Positions 10,619-39,494 of a stretch of DNA of 58,890 nt are shown here, one piece after another (position 1 is the first letter of the stretch; each line of letters opens with the position of its first letter). The position numbers were made by a program, and so were the translations under genes. Source of the DNA: a virus (lineage: Duplodnaviria; Caudoviricetes); the IMG/VR virus record IMGVR_UViG_3300044606_000078, positions 1 through 58,890 of that record; one strand, written 5' to 3'. Below the pieces are notes generated by a model. The model worked only from the letters and a program-made list of their open reading frames with translations, was not told the origin of the DNA and made no database searches.

Positions 10619-11422
10619 TCACGGCGCGCACTGCCGGACGTCGAAACTCGCGCCGTCCGTATCCACGATTACATCTCCAGACGCCGTAGCGTACAGGACG
10701 ACGCCAGTGGCCCGCAGCGCGTCCAAAACCTCTCGGTGAGGGTGTTTGTACCTGTTGCCATTCCCGAACGTCGCCACGGCCAATTTTGGGGCTATAGCGG
10801 CCAAATGCGCCGCGTCTGTGCCCGTCCGTGACCCGTGGTGCGCGAGCTTCAAAATATCGCTTTTCGGCAGCGCGTGGTTCTCCCATTCGGCCCTTTCCAC
10901 ATCGGCCGTCATGAGGAACGAGACGCGCCCGTACGCGACCCGAAGGATGATCGAGTTGTTGTTCGCCCCGACGCCGCGCCATCTCCGATCCGGCGCCAGA
11001 ATCTCCACTTCGGCCTGACCGATCGTCTCCTTGAATCCGGCCTTCGGCGTGCCGAAACGGATCCCCTCCTTGAGTATCGTCCGCATGATCGACTGCTGGA
11101 GCCGGGAGCCCTGTTCGTATCCCGAATCCCAGACGCGCCCGACGCGGAACGCCCGGATCAATTCGTTGAAGCCGCCGATATGATCCTCGTGCGGATGCGT
11201 CAAGACGACGACATCGAGCGAAACGACGCCGGCGGAACGGAGATAGCCGACAAGTCGCTTCCCGGCTTCAGTCGGCCCGACATCGACGAGCATGCTCCTG
11301 CCGTCGTCGAACCGGAAAAGCGTCGCGTCGCCCTGCCCAACGCCGATGAAGTGCGCCGTAAGCGCGTGACAGGGGAAGGCGAGAAGCAGGAGAACGAAGA
11401 GACAGGAGAGAACGCGCCTCAT
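10619..11422 (-). CDS. Exported ComEC/Rec2-type metallo-beta-lactamase-fold hydrolase (probable nuclease)
   Basis: Signal peptide; VGQGDA, THPHEDHIGG, NNNS, HHGS and YKHPH motifs. Confidence 0.9.
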   Translation of the reverse strand: MRRVLSCLFVLLLLAFPCHALTAHFIGVGQGDATLFRFDDGRSMLVDVGPTEAGKRLVGYLRSAGVVSLDVVVLTHPHEDHIGGFNELIRAFRVGRVWDSGYEQGSRLQQSIMRTILKEGIRFGTPKAGFKETIGQAEVEILAPDRRWRGVGANNNSIILRVAYGRVSFLMTADVERAEWENHALPKSDILKLAHHGSRTGTDAAHLAAIAPKLAVATFGNGNRYKHPHREVLDALRATGVVLYATASGDVIVDTDGASFDVRQCAP

Positions 11423-11943
11423 GAGGAAAGGGCCTCTCCGATAGACTTGAGCTTGTCTCCCGACAGCCCCCGCTCGATCGCGACGTTGAACGCCGTTACG
11501 AGCGCGTCCCGCGAGTAGCCGAGTTCCGGACCGATGTCGAGAACGATCTTCGCGAGCTTCGGCAGGTACTTCTTGTCCGTCGCCCATTTCCCGGCCAGCC
11601 CCGACAGGAACATCCAGACGTTATCGGTATTGTCCCGACAGACCGGATAGAGCCGGGCTATCAGATCCTCGTACGCCCGGAACGCCGCTTCGTTGCTCGG
11701 ATACGACGCGAATCCGGAGACCTTCGTTTCCGGTCCCGACGGAAGGTCCTCCCACGTCCGGGCGTCGAAACAATCGCCCCCGAGACGCTTCCAACGACGG
11801 GTGCATTTGATTCCCCAGTGGTTCCGGTGGATCGTCATAGGTATCGACGAGAAGCGCCCCGTCTCCAGAACCGCCTGAGCGGTGCAGGCGAGGGCGTTCA
11901 CGCGATACCCGAGAGCCATTGCATGGAACGCCCTCGCGTCCAT
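11419..11943 (-). CDS. Glucosaminidase (GH73/FlgJ-like) endolysin
   Basis: AQAVLETG...NHWGIK...TWE...FASYPS...WATDKKY. Confidence 0.8.
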   Translation of the reverse strand: MDARAFHAMALGYRVNALACTAQAVLETGRFSSIPMTIHRNHWGIKCTRRWKRLGGDCFDARTWEDLPSGPETKVSGFASYPSNEAAFRAYEDLIARLYPVCRDNTDNVWMFLSGLAGKWATDKKYLPKLAKIVLDIGPELGYSRDALVTAFNVAIERGLSGDKLKSIGEALSS

Positions 11944-29415: not shown

Positions 29416-30570
29416 CTACTGAACCATGCGCACCGCAAGGTTCGGGTCGAGCACCTGAACGCCCCAGAGTGCATCGATGCCGACCTTGACCGTGCTCTTG
29501 TCGCCGTCGTACCACATGCGCGAGCGGAGCGCGAGCCCGGTCACGGGGTCGACGACGGACGCGATGCGGGCTCCGAGCTGTTCTCCGATGTTCGGCAGCG
29601 GAGCCATTGCGAGAGCGAAAGCGTTCCGGTGGAACGCAAGGCACTGATTCTTGGTCGCGCCGGTGCCGGACGGCAGGTAGATCGTTACGACGGCGTTTTC
29701 CGCAGCCGCCTGCTTGAGCGCCGGGTAGATGCTGATGGACGTCGCGCTGTTCACGGTCGCGTTCGCCGTGATGGTGTACCGCTGGCTGTCGCCGGTGATC
29801 GCGAGGATGTCCCCCGCCTTGACGGTCTGCGCATCCGTGAGGCTCTTGACGACGATCGCAGTGGCCCCGGCCGCAGTGTCCGCGTTGACCGCCCCTGCGG
29901 TGTCGGCCATGGTTCCGGACAGGTGCGCAGGGGTGTTCTGGTTGGCGAAAACCTCGAATCCGAACTTGCGGCCGAGCGTTCCCCGCATCTGGGTTTCAGC
30001 GCCGGAAGCTCCGGCCCCATCCACCGTATGGAACACGGAAATGTTCTGGAGTCCGGCCTGCACCGCGCCGTCGACCATGAAGTGGAGATTCCCGTCCTCC
30101 ACGGGAGCCTTCAGGTCGAAGAGCTTCTGATACGCCTTCGTGATGTCCGCGACGGTCGGGGTCGAAGCGATGGTGTCGTGCCACGGAATCTGCTTGTAGA
30201 GCGCCACGAGGGTCAGGTCGATCTTGTCCGCGATCGAGTAGGCCGCAGGACGGATGTGCTTCTCGATGATCTGTTCCTGGGTGAAGGAGAGTTCCTTGTC
30301 GGAGAGGGCGAATTTCGTCTCCCACCACTGATCGAGCGTGATGTTGACGGTGTCGGGCGCTAGCTCCTGCGTGGTGCCTCCGGTGGTCGTGTTGACTTCG
30401 GTTGCGGTGAAGCTCGTCGGGCGGTCGATGGAGATGACGGAGCCCTTCTGACGCTGCTCCTTGTCGTATCCTCGATAGACGCGTCCGGCCATGCCGAGCG
30501 CCTTTTCAAGCTGGATCAGGGACTCCTGCGCATAGAAAATGGGATCGTAGTTGCCGAGAGAATTCGACAA
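29416..30570 (-). CDS. Major capsid protein (P22 coat-like)
   Basis: KG..ISI.RP, I.PAA..IADKID, G.LGRKFGF....NQN, AFH.NAFALA..PL, D.LWGV..L.P.LAV. Confidence 0.9.
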   Translation of the reverse strand: MSNSLGNYDPIFYAQESLIQLEKALGMAGRVYRGYDKEQRQKGSVISIDRPTSFTATEVNTTTGGTTQELAPDTVNITLDQWWETKFALSDKELSFTQEQIIEKHIRPAAYSIADKIDLTLVALYKQIPWHDTIASTPTVADITKAYQKLFDLKAPVEDGNLHFMVDGAVQAGLQNISVFHTVDGAGASGAETQMRGTLGRKFGFEVFANQNTPAHLSGTMADTAGAVNADTAAGATAIVVKSLTDAQTVKAGDILAITGDSQRYTITANATVNSATSISIYPALKQAAAENAVVTIYLPSGTGATKNQCLAFHRNAFALAMAPLPNIGEQLGARIASVVDPVTGLALRSRMWYDGDKSTVKVGIDALWGVQVLDPNLAVRMVQ

Positions 30571-30634: not shown

Positions 30635-31426
30635 TTACTCTCCGGCGATCTGGAACGTCGCCCCGGATTTCGCGGCGGCTTCCCGCGCCGCACGGTATTT
30701 CGCCGGATCCTTCGCGTCGTCGCGGGAGAGCGTGAACATGCCGCTTTGCTGCGAATTGCCCGGTTTCATCCCGCCGCCGCTCGCGCCGGTTCCCTCGAAC
30801 GCACGGCCGTAGATCTCGTTGCTCTTGAGCTCCGCGATAAGGTCCTTGACGCCGAGGTATTCGCCCTTGCTGTTCATCCGGGGGGTTCCGTCCGGAGTCA
30901 GCACGCGGACGACGTATTTCCCGTTTTCGTCGAAAACCTTCACCTGCCGCTGGACGTGCGGGAGAAGAAGCTCCGGGATGCCCTTTTCGGCGGCGATGGC
31001 GGATGTCGCGGCGGCGTCGATCAGATAGGACTCCAGCGCTTTCTGCCGCCGCTGGATTTCGGCGTCCTTTTCCGCAATCACCTTGTCGCGGGCGGAAAGT
31101 TCCTTGCCGTGCGAGTCCACGAGCTGAGCCCGCAGCTTTTCCCACTCGCCTTTCTGTTCCAACTTCGCCTTTTCCGCTTCCTCCTGCTGGCGCAGAAGGT
31201 CCGCTATTTCCTCCGGGCTCTTCCCGAGCCCCTGATACTGCTTCGCGAGCTTTTCAAGCTCCCGCGCCGTCTTGCGTTCCTTCTCCAACGCGGACTTGAG
31301 CCCGCTCGTATCCTCGACGCCCTCCACTCCAAGGACGTAAGAGCCGTCCTTTTCCTCGTAGAAGCCCCGGATTCCCTCCGGCAGCCCCTTGTATTCATCC
31401 GTACTTACCTTGAGTTTCAGAGTCAT
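30635..31426 (-). CDS. Capsid scaffolding protein
   Basis: GLKSALEKER coiled coil, GASGGG C-terminal region; precedes the capsid gene. Confidence 0.8.
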   Translation of the reverse strand: MTLKLKVSTDEYKGLPEGIRGFYEEKDGSYVLGVEGVEDTSGLKSALEKERKTARELEKLAKQYQGLGKSPEEIADLLRQQEEAEKAKLEQKGEWEKLRAQLVDSHGKELSARDKVIAEKDAEIQRRQKALESYLIDAAATSAIAAEKGIPELLLPHVQRQVKVFDENGKYVVRVLTPDGTPRMNSKGEYLGVKDLIAELKSNEIYGRAFEGTGASGGGMKPGNSQQSGMFTLSRDDAKDPAKYRAAREAAAKSGATFQIAGE

Positions 31427-31484
31427 TGGTGAATCACCCTCCCGGTGAGATTTGGATTCCCCGCCGCTTCCCGCGCGCGGGCAC

Positions 31485-31516
31485 AAAAAAAGGCCCCTCG
31501 GGTTTCCCCGAGAGGC
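31485..31516 (-). terminator. Rho-independent terminator
   Basis: GGCCTCTCGGGG-AAA-CCCGAGGGGCC followed by T7. Confidence 0.75.
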
Positions 31517-33426: not shown

Positions 33427-33816
33427 CTACCGGGATAGGTTATTTGCGAAACACTCAATCGCATTTTCAAGCCTCGTGATCCGATTACCCAAATCGTAGA
33501 TTTCGCAATCTCGCGCCATGTCTTCTACCGGAATGTCTTGGCCCGATACCAGGTTGTATGTTTTGTCAAAACTATTCATAGAGCACGGACAGATTTCTCC
33601 GGAGGACTCGTCGCGGACGATATAGCCCCCATACTCGACCTCATCCCATCCGCTCCGTGTTTTCACGTACATAGAGCGGCTGCCATCAGCTTTATCTACT
33701 ACGTCGATGAATCCAGCCTTGATAGCGTTACTGATCCATTCCGGGTATATTTCTGGGGTTCTTCCCCCACGTTGAAACGCTTCGAACGTCGCGGGTCTTT
33801 TGATACATCTCACCAT
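33427..33816 (-). CDS. Hypothetical protein (PGDYG-like)
   Basis: G.YIVRD..GEI.PC....F.KTY motif. Confidence 0.65.
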   Translation of the reverse strand: MVRCIKRPATFEAFQRGGRTPEIYPEWISNAIKAGFIDVVDKADGSRSMYVKTRSGWDEVEYGGYIVRDESSGEICPCSMNSFDKTYNLVSGQDIPVEDMARDCEIYDLGNRITRLENAIECFANNLSR

Positions 33817-33832
33817 GTCCGCACCCACCTCC

Positions 33833-35824
33833 CTATCCGAACATCTCGATCAATTCCTTCAGCGTCAGCTCCCGCCCGGTCTGGTCCGTCATGTCGCGGA
33901 TGCTGATCTTGCCTTCCTCCCACAAGCGCGCCTTGCCCTTGCCGAACATCTCCGCCACGAAACCGGGTTGTTCGTCCTCTTTCTGCCGCAGCCACTCGTC
34001 GAACGTCATGCCGGCGGGAACCTGACCGTCCATAGAGGCGCGCGTCGATTCGGGGATCTCGTCGAGGTCGATGCCGAGTTCGCGGAAGCTCTTCAGCACT
34101 GGAACCGTCGTACTCCGGCAGCCCCAATGCCTGGGGGGTGGTTCGAACGTCTTGCCGTGCCCTATAGGATTGCCTTCCAGATCCCACGTCAGCCCATCCA
34201 GAGAGGCGCAATTCTTGACAAGAAAACCACTTGCGATGTATAATCCTAGACTAGATTGGAGGTTATAAACATGGCAAGATCTGTGCTCTCGCCTTACGCC
34301 AACGACGTTATCGCGCAATACCGTTCCGGGAAAACGGCTTGCAAAATTGCTAAAGACTTCGGGGTGAGTACCACCACAGCTACCAAATTCCTGATTGGGG
34401 CGGGGGTCATGGAATACTCCCCCAGAGACGGGAGAAACACTTTGAGCGCCGCAGATGCCCGTCTTGCCGTTTGCCTTTTTAACAAAGGGATTTCGCCGTC
34501 CCAAATATTGAAACAACTTCCCCGGAAACGAAGCAAGTCTTGGCTTTACTCTGTTTTCAAAGAATTCAACTGCGACCTTCAAGGGTGGTACGGTTGGAAA
34601 CAGACGCAGGAAAATCTTGAAAAACAGTCCATGACCAAAGAGAGAACCGGGTTCTTGACTCCTGCGGAGGATGCCCTTTTTTCCATGCTCTCCAAAGAAG
34701 GGCGCCTTGACATTATTCCCCAAAAGTCTATTGGGGTTCACAATGCAGACTTCCTCATCGCCTCCCATTCCGTCGCCGTGGAATTGGCCTGTAGAGGATC
34801 TTTCATGAGATACCTCAGAAAAGGGATGTGCATAGATCGAATCAAAGAGTTCGGAAAAGCTGGTTGGCACACTTACGTTTTGTTCACCAAAGACAGAGAA
34901 TTTCTCATCAGGGACGGCATAACAGACCTCTTGGCCTGGCTTGACTTTATCAAGCGCCAACCACCCACTCGGCGTCAGTATAGGGTGGTTCGGAGTCCCG
35001 GTGATCTCCTTGCCTGTGGCTGTAGTGACGACGACAAATTCCCCGGAATAGAACCTTTTATAGACTCTTTGAAGTGAACCTACAGGAATAACGGGTGTTT
35101 CCCCAGGGAAACATTCGATTGTCGTCCGCTGGTCGAGCGTCGCTACCCACATGACGCCCTTCACCACGTCGGAGTTTTCTTTGTACACGAGCATGTGGGC
35201 GTCGTTCGCGATCTGCTGGACGGACGATCGGATGACCGCCTCCGCCCCCCGGCGAGTGCCCATTCGGAGGTCGAATATCGGATTGCCTTCCTCGTCGGTG
35301 CTTTTCGTCAGTCGCCGGAGAAGCTGCGCGTTCGTCTCGCCGCGCAACCACCCCTGCCGGATGGTGTCCTTGAAGTTGTTCAGGAGCTTCGCCGACTGCC
35401 GGGACCACCATTCGGACGACGGGGCGTTCAGAATCAGCGCGTCGGACGCGGCCGACATGATCTGTTCCTGAGTCAGCCCGAGGGTTATCAGCTCGATGCC
35501 GATGCCCTTGTTGAGCGCGGCGACGAGCCACGCCGTCTCGGTTTCCATCAGCCCGGAGAGCGTGCGGGTCATTTCGCCCGATATGTCGTCGTAGACTGCC
35601 TGTATCGCGTTCTGTGCGGTCTTCCACAGCTCTTTCAGCCGGTATTTCTGGTAGTCCGTCCCGTACTCGCCGCCAATGCCGATGTCCGACATGTCGAGCG
35701 CGAGCTGACCCAAGAGCTTGTCGAGCATCTTCAGGATCTTCTTCCGCTGCGACGCTTCGAGCCGCGACAGGACGATTCCCCTGCTTCGGATCGCGTCGGC
35801 TATCGTCTCGTTGACCGATTTCAT
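33833..35824 (-). CDS. Phage head morphogenesis protein (MuF/SPP1 gp7 family) containing an intein
   Basis: WVATLDQRTTIE|CASLDG...PPPRHWGCRST motifs; the predicted spliced product is 362 aa. Confidence 0.92.
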   Translation of the reverse strand: MKSVNETIADAIRSRGIVLSRLEASQRKKILKMLDKLLGQLALDMSDIGIGGEYGTDYQKYRLKELWKTAQNAIQAVYDDISGEMTRTLSGLMETETAWLVAALNKGIGIELITLGLTQEQIMSAASDALILNAPSSEWWSRQSAKLLNNFKDTIRQGWLRGETNAQLLRRLTKSTDEEGNPIFDLRMGTRRGAEAVIRSSVQQIANDAHMLVYKENSDVVKGVMWVATLDQRTTIECFPGETPVIPVGSLQRVYKRFYSGEFVVVTTATGKEITGTPNHPILTPSGWLALDKVKPGQEVCYAVPDEKFSVFGEQNVSVPTSFSELFDSIYAHPFSEVSHERSSTGQFHGDGMGGDEEVCIVNPNRLLGNNVKAPFFGEHGKKGILRRSQEPGSLFGHGLFFKIFLRLFPTVPPLKVAVEFFENRVKPRLASFPGKLFQYLGRRNPFVKKANGKTGICGAQSVSPVSGGVFHDPRPNQEFGSCGGTHPEVFSNFASRFPGTVLRDNVVGVRREHRSCHVYNLQSSLGLYIASGFLVKNCASLDGLTWDLEGNPIGHGKTFEPPPRHWGCRSTTVPVLKSFRELGIDLDEIPESTRASMDGQVPAGMTFDEWLRQKEDEQPGFVAEMFGKGKARLWEEGKISIRDMTDQTGRELTLKELIEMFG
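34215..34263 (+). promoter_or_regulatory. Consensus sigma70 promoter and RBS, antisense within the intein
   Basis: TTGACA 34215-34220, 18-bp spacer, TATAAT 34239-34244, GGAGGT 34258-34263, ATG 34271. Confidence 0.85.
34271..35077 (+). CDS. HTH plus Vsr/DUF559-like (PD-(D/E)xK) endonuclease, nested antisense in the intein
   Basis: HTH (YRSGKTACKIAKDFGVSTTTATKFL), second HTH-like segment, then LTPAEDALFSML...PQKSIG.HNADFLI....VAVEL...DRIKEFGKAGW.TYVL. Confidence 0.8.
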   Translation: MARSVLSPYANDVIAQYRSGKTACKIAKDFGVSTTTATKFLIGAGVMEYSPRDGRNTLSAADARLAVCLFNKGISPSQILKQLPRKRSKSWLYSVFKEFNCDLQGWYGWKQTQENLEKQSMTKERTGFLTPAEDALFSMLSKEGRLDIIPQKSIGVHNADFLIASHSVAVELACRGSFMRYLRKGMCIDRIKEFGKAGWHTYVLFTKDREFLIRDGITDLLAWLDFIKRQPPTRRQYRVVRSPGDLLACGCSDDDKFPGIEPFIDSLK

Positions 35825-35825
35825 G

Positions 35826-37217
35826 TCATGCGGCCGGTTCCGTCAGGTCCGGCCCCTCCGAATCGACCATTTCCAATTCCGCTTCCGCGTCGAACTCCTC
35901 CGGCAGCAGCCCCCTTCTGACCGCTTCCGCCAAGAGCGTCTTTTTGGTAATGATTCCGCCCATCTGCATCTGCATGAGGCTCTTGATGTCCTCCGCCGAC
36001 TCGCCGGGCATAGAGAACGCCCCCTGTAGCTGGATCGATCCCCCGTCCTTCAACCCGATCCATTCGGCCATGATTTGCAACACGTTCTCTAGCGCGTCCT
36101 TGACGCCGATGGACATTCGCCGGAGGTCGGAGGTCGAGTTCGCGTTGGAGATTTCGGATTCCGTCGCGGTCACGTCGGCGCCCGTCGCACGCGGCATTTG
36201 GAATTGCAATCCCTCCATCGCCATATCGACTTTCAGATCTTGGAGACGGGTCCGCCCCGCGTTGATAGCGGTTCCGGCATGTTCGAGGTAATAGAATTTC
36301 CCGCCGGGGTCGGTCATGGACAGGAACCGGAAGGGAGAAAGCACTACTTTCGGATCTTCCTCCGGCTTCCAGCCCGACGCGGCGAGGATCGGAAAACTCG
36401 CCACTGTGATAGCGTTCGCGTAGTCGCTGTAGTCCTGCCAGTAGGCGACGTTCATGTAGGCCAAATCGAGCAGCGGCGGGCGGCAGAGAAACGCGCCGGT
36501 GCGCTCGCCGTAGAGCGGGACGAGCGGTACGCGGGGCAGCGAAGTCGTTCCGTTTTCGACCATCGCCCACTCTTCCGTCTGGCCCTTGCGGACACGCTCC
36601 CAGACCTCATACGCTCCGGGAGACAGGACGCGGACCCGTTCGGCGGTCGTCTCACCGTAGGCCCCGTCCGGCACGGTCGCGTTCTCGCGGATTCGCGCCT
36701 GAATGATCGTCCGACCGTCTGGGGAGAGACGCACGCCGATGACGCTTTCAGCCGGGAGTGAGACGACATACGGTCTTGCGCCGGACGCCCGCTCGTCGGC
36801 GAGTGTGCGGATTCCGTCGGTGCGCGGGTACTCGACGAGCAGATAGTGGATTCCTTTCGATAGCGCCCCGCGCAGAGCGTCAGGGGCCATAATCGCGAGG
36901 TGGGAACCCTGCATGTCAAGGTCTTCGCAAAACTCGCGGATCTGAGGCGGCACGTCGTTCTGTAGCACGGGCTCCTTCGCAAAGATCTTCCCGGCGAGGT
37001 GCCGGACCGTGCCCTTGAAATAATTGTGGAGGATCGCTCGGGAGAGTCGGTACCGGTAGTCCTCATCCTCCTCCGCCCTGTGCTTCGGGAGGTACGCGGT
37101 CCCGGCATCCCGCATCGCCCGCGTGCCTCCAAGCAGCGCCTCGATCATGTTCCAGTCCGGCACCCTCGCGGCGTACGCAGCCGATGGCGTCGATACGTCT
37201 GTTTTGATGTCGCCCAT
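35826..37217 (-). CDS. Portal protein (DUF4055-like)
   Basis: GGTRAMRDAG..YLP...E....Y..RL.RA, PPLLDLA..N, TATE; follows terL. Confidence 0.88.
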   Translation of the reverse strand: MGDIKTDVSTPSAAYAARVPDWNMIEALLGGTRAMRDAGTAYLPKHRAEEDEDYRYRLSRAILHNYFKGTVRHLAGKIFAKEPVLQNDVPPQIREFCEDLDMQGSHLAIMAPDALRGALSKGIHYLLVEYPRTDGIRTLADERASGARPYVVSLPAESVIGVRLSPDGRTIIQARIRENATVPDGAYGETTAERVRVLSPGAYEVWERVRKGQTEEWAMVENGTTSLPRVPLVPLYGERTGAFLCRPPLLDLAYMNVAYWQDYSDYANAITVASFPILAASGWKPEEDPKVVLSPFRFLSMTDPGGKFYYLEHAGTAINAGRTRLQDLKVDMAMEGLQFQMPRATGADVTATESEISNANSTSDLRRMSIGVKDALENVLQIMAEWIGLKDGGSIQLQGAFSMPGESAEDIKSLMQMQMGGIITKKTLLAEAVRRGLLPEEFDAEAELEMVDSEGPDLTEPAA

Positions 37218-38771: not shown

Positions 38772-39494
38772 ATGGCGCGAAAGGCGGGTCAGGAAGAAGC
38801 GGCAGTGCTCTACATCCGGGTCAGCACAATGGATCAGGCGGAGCACGGGGTATCCCTCGACGCACAGGAGCAGCGGCTTCGGTCGTACGCGGCGGCGCAG
38901 GGGCTTTCGGTCGTCGCCGTCCTTCGGGAAGAGGCAATCTCCGGGACCGTCCCGCTGTCCGAGCGCCCCGAGGGGCGGGAGCTGGTCGGACTCGTGACGT
39001 CCGGGAATGCGGCTCACGTCGTCGCGCTGAAGCTCGACCGGCTCTTTCGGAGCGCGGTCGATGCGCTCCAGACAACCGCCGAGTGGGACCGGCGCGGCGT
39101 CTCGCTCCACCTCGTGGACATGGGCGGACAAAGTCTCAACACCGGGTCCGCGATGGGGCGGATGATGCTCACCATGCTGGCCGGGTTCGCGCAGTTCGAG
39201 CGCGACCTGACGGCGGAGCGTACCAAGGCGGCGCTCGCCCACAAGCGGGACGCGGGCACGGCGTACTCTCCGACTCCCTACGGCAAGGTCCGCGAGGGGG
39301 AAACGCTCCGGGACGACGCTACGGAGCAGTCGATACTCGCGAGGATACGCGCGATGCGGGCGAAGGGGCTCGCGCTCCGGCGGATCGCGGACCGGCTGAA
39401 CGGCGAAGGGATCGCAAGCAAACAGGGGCGCACCTGGTACGCCTCGACCGTAGCGTACATGCTGAGACGGACGGCGGCAGAGGTGAGCCGATGA
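38772..39494 (+). CDS. Serine recombinase (resolvase catalytic domain plus short recombinase/HTH C-terminus)
   Basis: YIRVST.DQ...G.SL..Q, SG....RP, KLDRLFRS, FAQFER....ERT. Confidence 0.92.
   Translation: MARKAGQEEAAVLYIRVSTMDQAEHGVSLDAQEQRLRSYAAAQGLSVVAVLREEAISGTVPLSERPEGRELVGLVTSGNAAHVVALKLDRLFRSAVDALQTTAEWDRRGVSLHLVDMGGQSLNTGSAMGRMMLTMLAGFAQFERDLTAERTKAALAHKRDAGTAYSPTPYGKVREGETLRDDATEQSILARIRAMRAKGLALRRIADRLNGEGIASKQGRTWYASTVAYMLRRTAAEVSR

Follow-up and report, generated by a model that had tools for sequence, protein, structure and literature searches.

An intein in the MuF head gene of a tailed phage with an antisense gene for a predicted Vsr-like nuclease

Nucleases in and between inteins and the MuF locus

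Anti-sense LAGLIDADG and VSR-like endonucleases have been described in full inteins of actinobacteriophages (Gosselin, Arsenault, Gogarten, bioRxiv 10.1101/2025.01.02.630785). According to the available text of that preprint, minor-capsid inteins carried only non-canonical nucleases, the VSR-like anti-sense nuclease was matched to 1CW0 and 3R3P, and expression and a homing role of the anti-sense nucleases were argued from trees only. The accessible parts of two further reports describe a cyanobacterial dnaX intein with an out-of-frame LAGLIDADG endonuclease (Phillips, DeSimone, Gogarten, bioRxiv 10.64898/2026.09.14.751524) and Vsr-like genes between split inteins (Dassa et al., 2009, PMC2677866). 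Here we analyzed IMG/VR record IMGVR_UViG_3300044606_000078, a tailed phage with direct terminal repeats whose whole record of 58,890 bases is referred to as the window. Its MuF gene is interrupted by an intein that carries a gene for a predicted nuclease, built on helix-turn-helix (HTH) units and a Vsr-like domain, on the opposite strand. Lengths of proteins are given in amino acids (aa):

33833..35824, minus strand: MuF-like minor capsid / head morphogenesis gene, 663 aa with the intein (PF04233, phrog_241, TIGR01641)
34211..35113, minus strand: class-1-type intein, 301 aa, with C1, TPNH, HVYNL, Lys-Asn and +1 Cys (TIGR01445 above cut-off)
34985..34996, minus strand: intein block B, TPNH, overlapped on the other strand by the nuclease C-terminal QYRVVRS
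34271..35077, plus strand: antisense gene, 268 aa, predicted HTH-HTH-helix-Vsr-like nuclease, ATG at 34271 to stop at 35077

A preliminary description, made from the letters of this DNA, knew of no account of such a layout. The layout is already published, with minor capsid genes among the non-canonical intein hosts in the preprint's available text, and the window is a variant of a recently described kind. As in the inteins of Gosselin et al., an intact antisense open reading frame (ORF) lies inside a contiguous intein. In contrast to that system, known from actinobacteriophages, homologues of the window locus were also found in E. coli, Salmonella and Idiomarinaceae phages and in metagenomes. 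The Gordonia proteins compared here, which may differ from the VSR-like set of the preprint, lack the E-x-x-x-R motif of the window's clade, and the main text of the preprint names no promoter, start codon or ribosome-binding site. The locus resembles the dnaX intein, as far as that report is available, in dual coding, in purifying selection on the nuclease frame and in relaxed selection on the intein interior, whereas the dnaX nuclease is a LAGLIDADG enzyme read in an overlapping '+2' frame of a bacterial gene and the one here is Vsr-like and encoded antisense to a phage head gene. The window nuclease lies antisense in an unbroken intein, whereas the available texts place I-Bth0305I in a group I intron and the genes of Dassa et al. 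between split-intein halves.

It is quite probable, in our judgment, that the intein is self-splicing and that the separate antisense nuclease cuts intein-free MuF so that repair copies the intein in. The MuF intein would splice itself out of the 663-aa precursor; the 268-residue gene would be transcribed from its own promoter and translated; its product would cut intein-free MuF alleles with an active site of E133, D160 and E171, in which R175 likely replaces a His; and repair of the cut allele would copy the intein in during co-infection, perhaps via the phage's own RecT/YqaJ. The preliminary description had proposed this design of an intein with a separately encoded antisense nuclease, and frame-swapped selection, a predicted Vsr fold, a promoter-like site with ribosome-binding site and start, and signs of recent movement support it. 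From the sequence comparisons, the arrangement is real, under selection and very likely mobile.

Selection on the two frames of the intein

The intein was found as first described, as an in-frame insert in MuF between RTTIE and CASLDG. It has C1, a block B of the form TxxH, block F, a terminal Asn and a +1 Cys (class 1 inteins have Cys, Ser or Thr here), and empty host-gene alleles at the same site were found in one contig and in seven kagunavirus alleles. The penultimate residue is a non-canonical Lys instead of His. The guanine-plus-cytosine (GC) content is ~0.49 within the intein compared to ~0.61 in the flanks. The motifs point to protein splicing of the MuF precursor, which would leave 362 aa by arithmetic only (663-301). 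The sense interior gave no family, atlas or significant solved-structure match, which is not evidence of disorder. A search of viral contigs with the sense intein and N-extein gave no matches, while the sense intein matched 110 phage records by tblastn, of which 7 were fetched for inspection; 63 Salmonella phage records were matched. Proteins with uracil-DNA glycosylase (PF03167) or deoxycytidylate deaminase (PF00383) domains also carry relatives of the sense frame (P0012, P0013, P0060, P0067, P0088, P0097 and others).

The antisense ORF has the proposed coordinates, lies entirely within the intein in exact codon register with the sense frame, and overlaps block B. That ~800 bp are stop-free on both strands is correct, but this is not by itself beyond chance. 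Antisense stops in this register require sense TTA, CTA or TCA, which made up 13 of the 2443 codons in the phage genes counted. As these codons are rare in the phage, the probability of 268 open antisense codons is ~0.23-0.24, and two-strand openness was rejected as proof of a gene. The case for the antisense gene rests on selection and homology.

A word search with the antisense protein gave four homologues of 40-75% identity and a profile search 20 representatives at E <= 1e-30. Homologues were found in E. coli, Salmonella, Gordonia and Idiomarinaceae phages and in metagenomes; in the MuF inteins of Gordonia phages the ORF homologues matched at E 3e-14 to 5e-8. The nuclease alignment found no match in GTDB genome contigs. 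Seventeen of 21 loci, the window included, were parsed as full inteins, and the conservation check proposed earlier found the antisense ORF intact in all 17 (250-297 aa, ending within the intein), a presence that is partly built in because most loci were retrieved with the nuclease as query. The ORF was also present in loci L001 and L011, and two further loci were incomplete. Loci L012 and L013 and phage Snoke lay outside the tblastn matches of the nuclease, yet had intact antisense ORFs. A second MuF site, HPN/CRS, holds a related intein of 272 aa that bears an antisense ORF of 250 aa (L012:1501-2316, Salmonella phage vB_StyS-sam; L042, E. coli phage Snoke).

The ratio of nonsynonymous to synonymous substitution rates (dN/dS) was computed for 8 of the 16 pairs, which included one identical pair, and the remainder was compared by identity. 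In the intein interior, dN/dS was 0.20-0.35 for the antisense frame and 0.66-1.05 for the sense frame (7 informative pairs), while in the splicing regions of the same pairs the sense frame was constrained. Interior identity was higher in the antisense than in the sense frame in 11 of 12 loci, and for the window and its closest relative it was 75% antisense and 52% sense. In four taxon-disjoint pairs, interior changes silent in one frame only favoured the antisense frame (147:48), whereas the antisense:sense counts were 22:47 and 7:22 in the splicing regions. These substitution patterns mark the antisense ORF as a selected gene, and selection is frame-swapped between the interior and the splicing regions. 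An ORF that is merely the shadow of an open sense frame would agree with how commonly the antisense strand is open in this register, and the antisense frame does continue into the extein at GC-rich loci. This explanation is already largely refuted and hardly credible, as interior selection favours the antisense frame, the antisense product has homologues and a confident predicted fold, and the sense interior matches no family or atlas entry.

The sense frame is constrained at one point within the interior:

34772..34786, minus strand: sense motif QFHGD, of the family [DNQ]F[HY]GD; it faces nuclease V168-A169-V170-E171-L172 and is under constraint in both frames

The sense FHGDG was found to be the codon-for-codon reverse complement of the nuclease SVAVE. 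Over 14 loci, which are related so that the counts are not independent draws, the codons of V168-E171 were frozen: GCC in 14/14, GAA in 13/14 and GTG for 11/11 Val, compared to a background use of 47, 44 and 17%, respectively. The remaining codon variation preserves the sense [DNQ]-F-[HY]-G-D in 13 of the 14 loci. Since synonymous positions are frozen opposite V168-E171, the sense frame is constrained exactly at the catalytic strand. The sense interior, which indeed lacks a recognizable domain, is by this codon usage not wholly inert, as a five-residue motif is constrained. The FHGDG may resemble the GDG of LAGLIDADG motifs. An FHGDG-type signature was present in 85 of 120 sense-frame relatives, and antisense nucleases may thus sit in other host genes.

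Predicted nuclease architecture and candidate expression signals

The antisense protein was assigned two predicted regions:

34289..34564, plus strand: two predicted HTH units, residues 7-43 and 57-98 (model helices; profile match to 2LVS, E 7.8e-14; Pfam HTH_23/HTH_7 below cut-off)
34652..35020, plus strand: predicted Vsr/DUF559-like nuclease domain, residues 128-250 (E133, Q151, N158, D160 and E171 kept)

The two HTH-like units and the Vsr-like domain agree with the earlier assignment, and the structure model gave a confident prediction of a Vsr-like fold for the C-terminal domain. The NUMOD-like linker suggested between them was not recovered. No NUMOD family was among the Pfam matches listed, which in one search were the first 25 of 55 families; HTH families were matched instead, and the model has a helix at residues 113-126 between the HTH units and the nuclease domain.

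In EDxHD enzymes such as I-Bth0305I, the His and the final Asp are termed catalytic in the available part of the report (Taylor et al., 2011, PMC3239194). The window protein has counterparts of the first Glu and the metal-binding Asp (E170 and D196 of I-Bth0305I) and an extra acidic residue, an equivalence of E133, D160 and E171 that is deduced from motif order, and these three residues were invariant in 42/42 aligned proteins. Doubts raised earlier about the active site were justified. In contrast to I-Bth0305I as it is described there, the protein lacks the His general base (H213) and the last Asp (D222), with F178 aligned to the His of the wider family and no conserved Asp after it, and predicted tandem HTH units appear in place of NUMOD repeats. 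An Arg four residues after E171 (R175 in the window; E-x-x-x-R) was fixed in 24 of 120 distinct motifs, which form a coherent clade that includes the kagunavirus nucleases. R175 likely stands in for the missing His in an active site of E133, D160 and E171.

Signals that could express the antisense gene were found inside the splicing motifs:

34215..34244, plus strand: putative sigma-70-like promoter TTGACA-18-TATAAT, 12/12, reverse complement of intein block G codons
34258..34273, plus strand: GGAGG ribosome-binding site and ATG, the ATG being the reverse complement of the block F His281 codon

The GGAGG (34258-34262) is the reverse complement of Asn-Leu-Gln codons. In all 17 parsed loci the block F His codon, read in reverse complement, supplies the antisense start, with GTG where the His is CAC; in locus L011 (Idiomarinaceae phage 1N2-2) a Pro replaces the block F His and the antisense gene uses a different ATG. 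The promoter had p = 0.002 against synonymous recoding and was matched at 12/12 positions in L001 and 11/12 in the kagunavirus. The penultimate Lys of the intein contributes part of the antisense -35 box (34211-34220). The best three promoter scores (window, L001 and L006) were all in inteins ending VKN; L003 also ends VKN and scores 8. The 5' region of the antisense gene was not stably folded (z = +1.29), and no plus-strand terminator was found after the ORF within 33800-35400. It is likely from these signals that the antisense gene is expressed from its own promoter.

We suggest, tentatively, that the locus may represent an actively homing subfamily of antisense intein nucleases with a new Vsr-fold active site (Glu/Asp/Glu and Arg, no His), with its expression signals in splicing motifs (block F His codon as start, blocks F-G as ribosome-binding site and promoter) and with its catalytic strand locked to a functional sense motif. 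Intein and nuclease would then be entangled and not easily lost apart. For the His-less clade, the block F His start codon, the embedded promoter and the dual-constrained motif, no description was found in the literature searched, subscription papers and bioRxiv supplements being outside its scope.

Probable movement of the intein and its genomic setting

Locus L015 carries the same intein, which departs from that of the window at a single base of 903 without changing the nuclease, while the MuF exteins of the two are 82% identical and the nearest mismatches are 6 and 10 nucleotides (nt) from the intein junctions. Their portal genes share 98% identity, and beyond the downstream end of MuF their DNA is unrelated: MuF has been exchanged as a module. 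If the proteins of the clade were catalytically dead and kept for DNA binding, the intein could have been spread by ordinary phage recombination or by a His-bearing nuclease of another phage. The missing His and final Asp, the RecT/YqaJ encoded in the genome and the exchange of MuF between otherwise close phages would fit this. It is nevertheless unlikely in view of the invariance of E133, D160 and E171, the clade-wide Arg, and an identical tract that extends no more than 6-10 nt beyond either junction, the pattern that a cut at the site would leave; a second Vsr-like gene was looked for in the window's genome and not found.

In one wastewater run the intein had a third flank, and a contig of that run that skips the intein reads RTTPL/C. 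Among E. coli kagunaviruses, 4 of 269 records covered the intein-bearing gene in full. The four kagunavirus inteins differ at 1-4 of 894 bases and their exteins at up to 11%. Eleven kagunavirus alleles were examined; the four carriers are not a clade, and seven alleles are empty at the site. All four occupied alleles read STT/C and six of the seven empty ones STI/C, which suggests short co-conversion of the codons just upstream of the intein. The intein-less RTTIE/C proposed earlier as the target is probably not the natural one, given the RTTPL/C of the empty allele and upstream codons that travel with the kagunavirus intein. Phages BEU33 (L043) and BEU35 (L037) have 99.9% identical exteins; the intein is absent from BEU33, whose allele has one codon fewer at the site (LDSRTST/C), possibly through imprecise intein loss or as a cleavage scar. 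For 15 C-extein loci (L022-L036) the regular expression for empty sites gave no match of either kind and was uninformative. Taken at the sequence level, the intein appears to have moved recently.

An active nuclease might also be kept mainly for damaging co-infecting intein-free phages, with homing as a by-product. Empty alleles are common among relatives, and a host-type sigma-70 promoter would permit expression straight after infection. We regard this as distinctly improbable, as near-identical inteins in divergent exteins indicate that copying does occur.

Besides the missing His and final Asp, several observations weigh against a homing antisense nuclease in the window. The window itself is not among the dN/dS pairs. 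With Foldseek nothing matched at E <= 0.001, and searches of Pfam, PHROGs and NCBIfam with the single antisense sequence yielded no nuclease family. Not all of the inteins share the promoter: among 16 distinct intein tails it reaches 12/12 in 2 and p < 0.05 in 4, is weak in most, and scores 5 in the three Vividuovirus tails. The 14 listed runs are contigs, and three of the four examined are probably DNA, so they are silent on strand and level of expression. Recombination has also reshuffled MuF, as the window and L015 share a portal gene of 98% identity, and the kagunavirus tree is blurred by recombination among phages. A single contig (depth 7.7, with 49 nt on its short side) carries the empty-allele joint; its likeness is 85%, and it may come from a more distant phage.

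MuF belongs to a minus-strand head module of terminase, portal, MuF, scaffold and P22-type coat genes; RecT, YqaJ, SSB, serine recombinase and ParA genes are found outside it. The following genes were noted:

35826-37217: portal gene, neighbour of MuF
30635-31486 and 29416-30570: scaffold and major capsid genes, other side of MuF
38772-39494, plus strand: serine recombinase gene, lying antisense between the two terminase genes (large and small)
10619-11587, minus strand: metallo-beta-lactamase-fold gene (PF00753, E 1e-14) near lysis genes, a fold common to many hydrolases

In the E. coli, Gordonia and Idiomarinaceae records fetched, the antisense gene was unannotated, and in a Salmonella phage record only a 133-aa part of it was annotated; annotation overlooks such antisense genes. 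The locus is a natural example of ~800 bases coding on both strands, and it offers sharp evidence of recent movement for a version without the textbook catalytic histidine. The exact putative promoter, ribosome-binding site and start are identified, and homing could be tested directly in cultured E. coli phages, among which both occupied and empty alleles exist.
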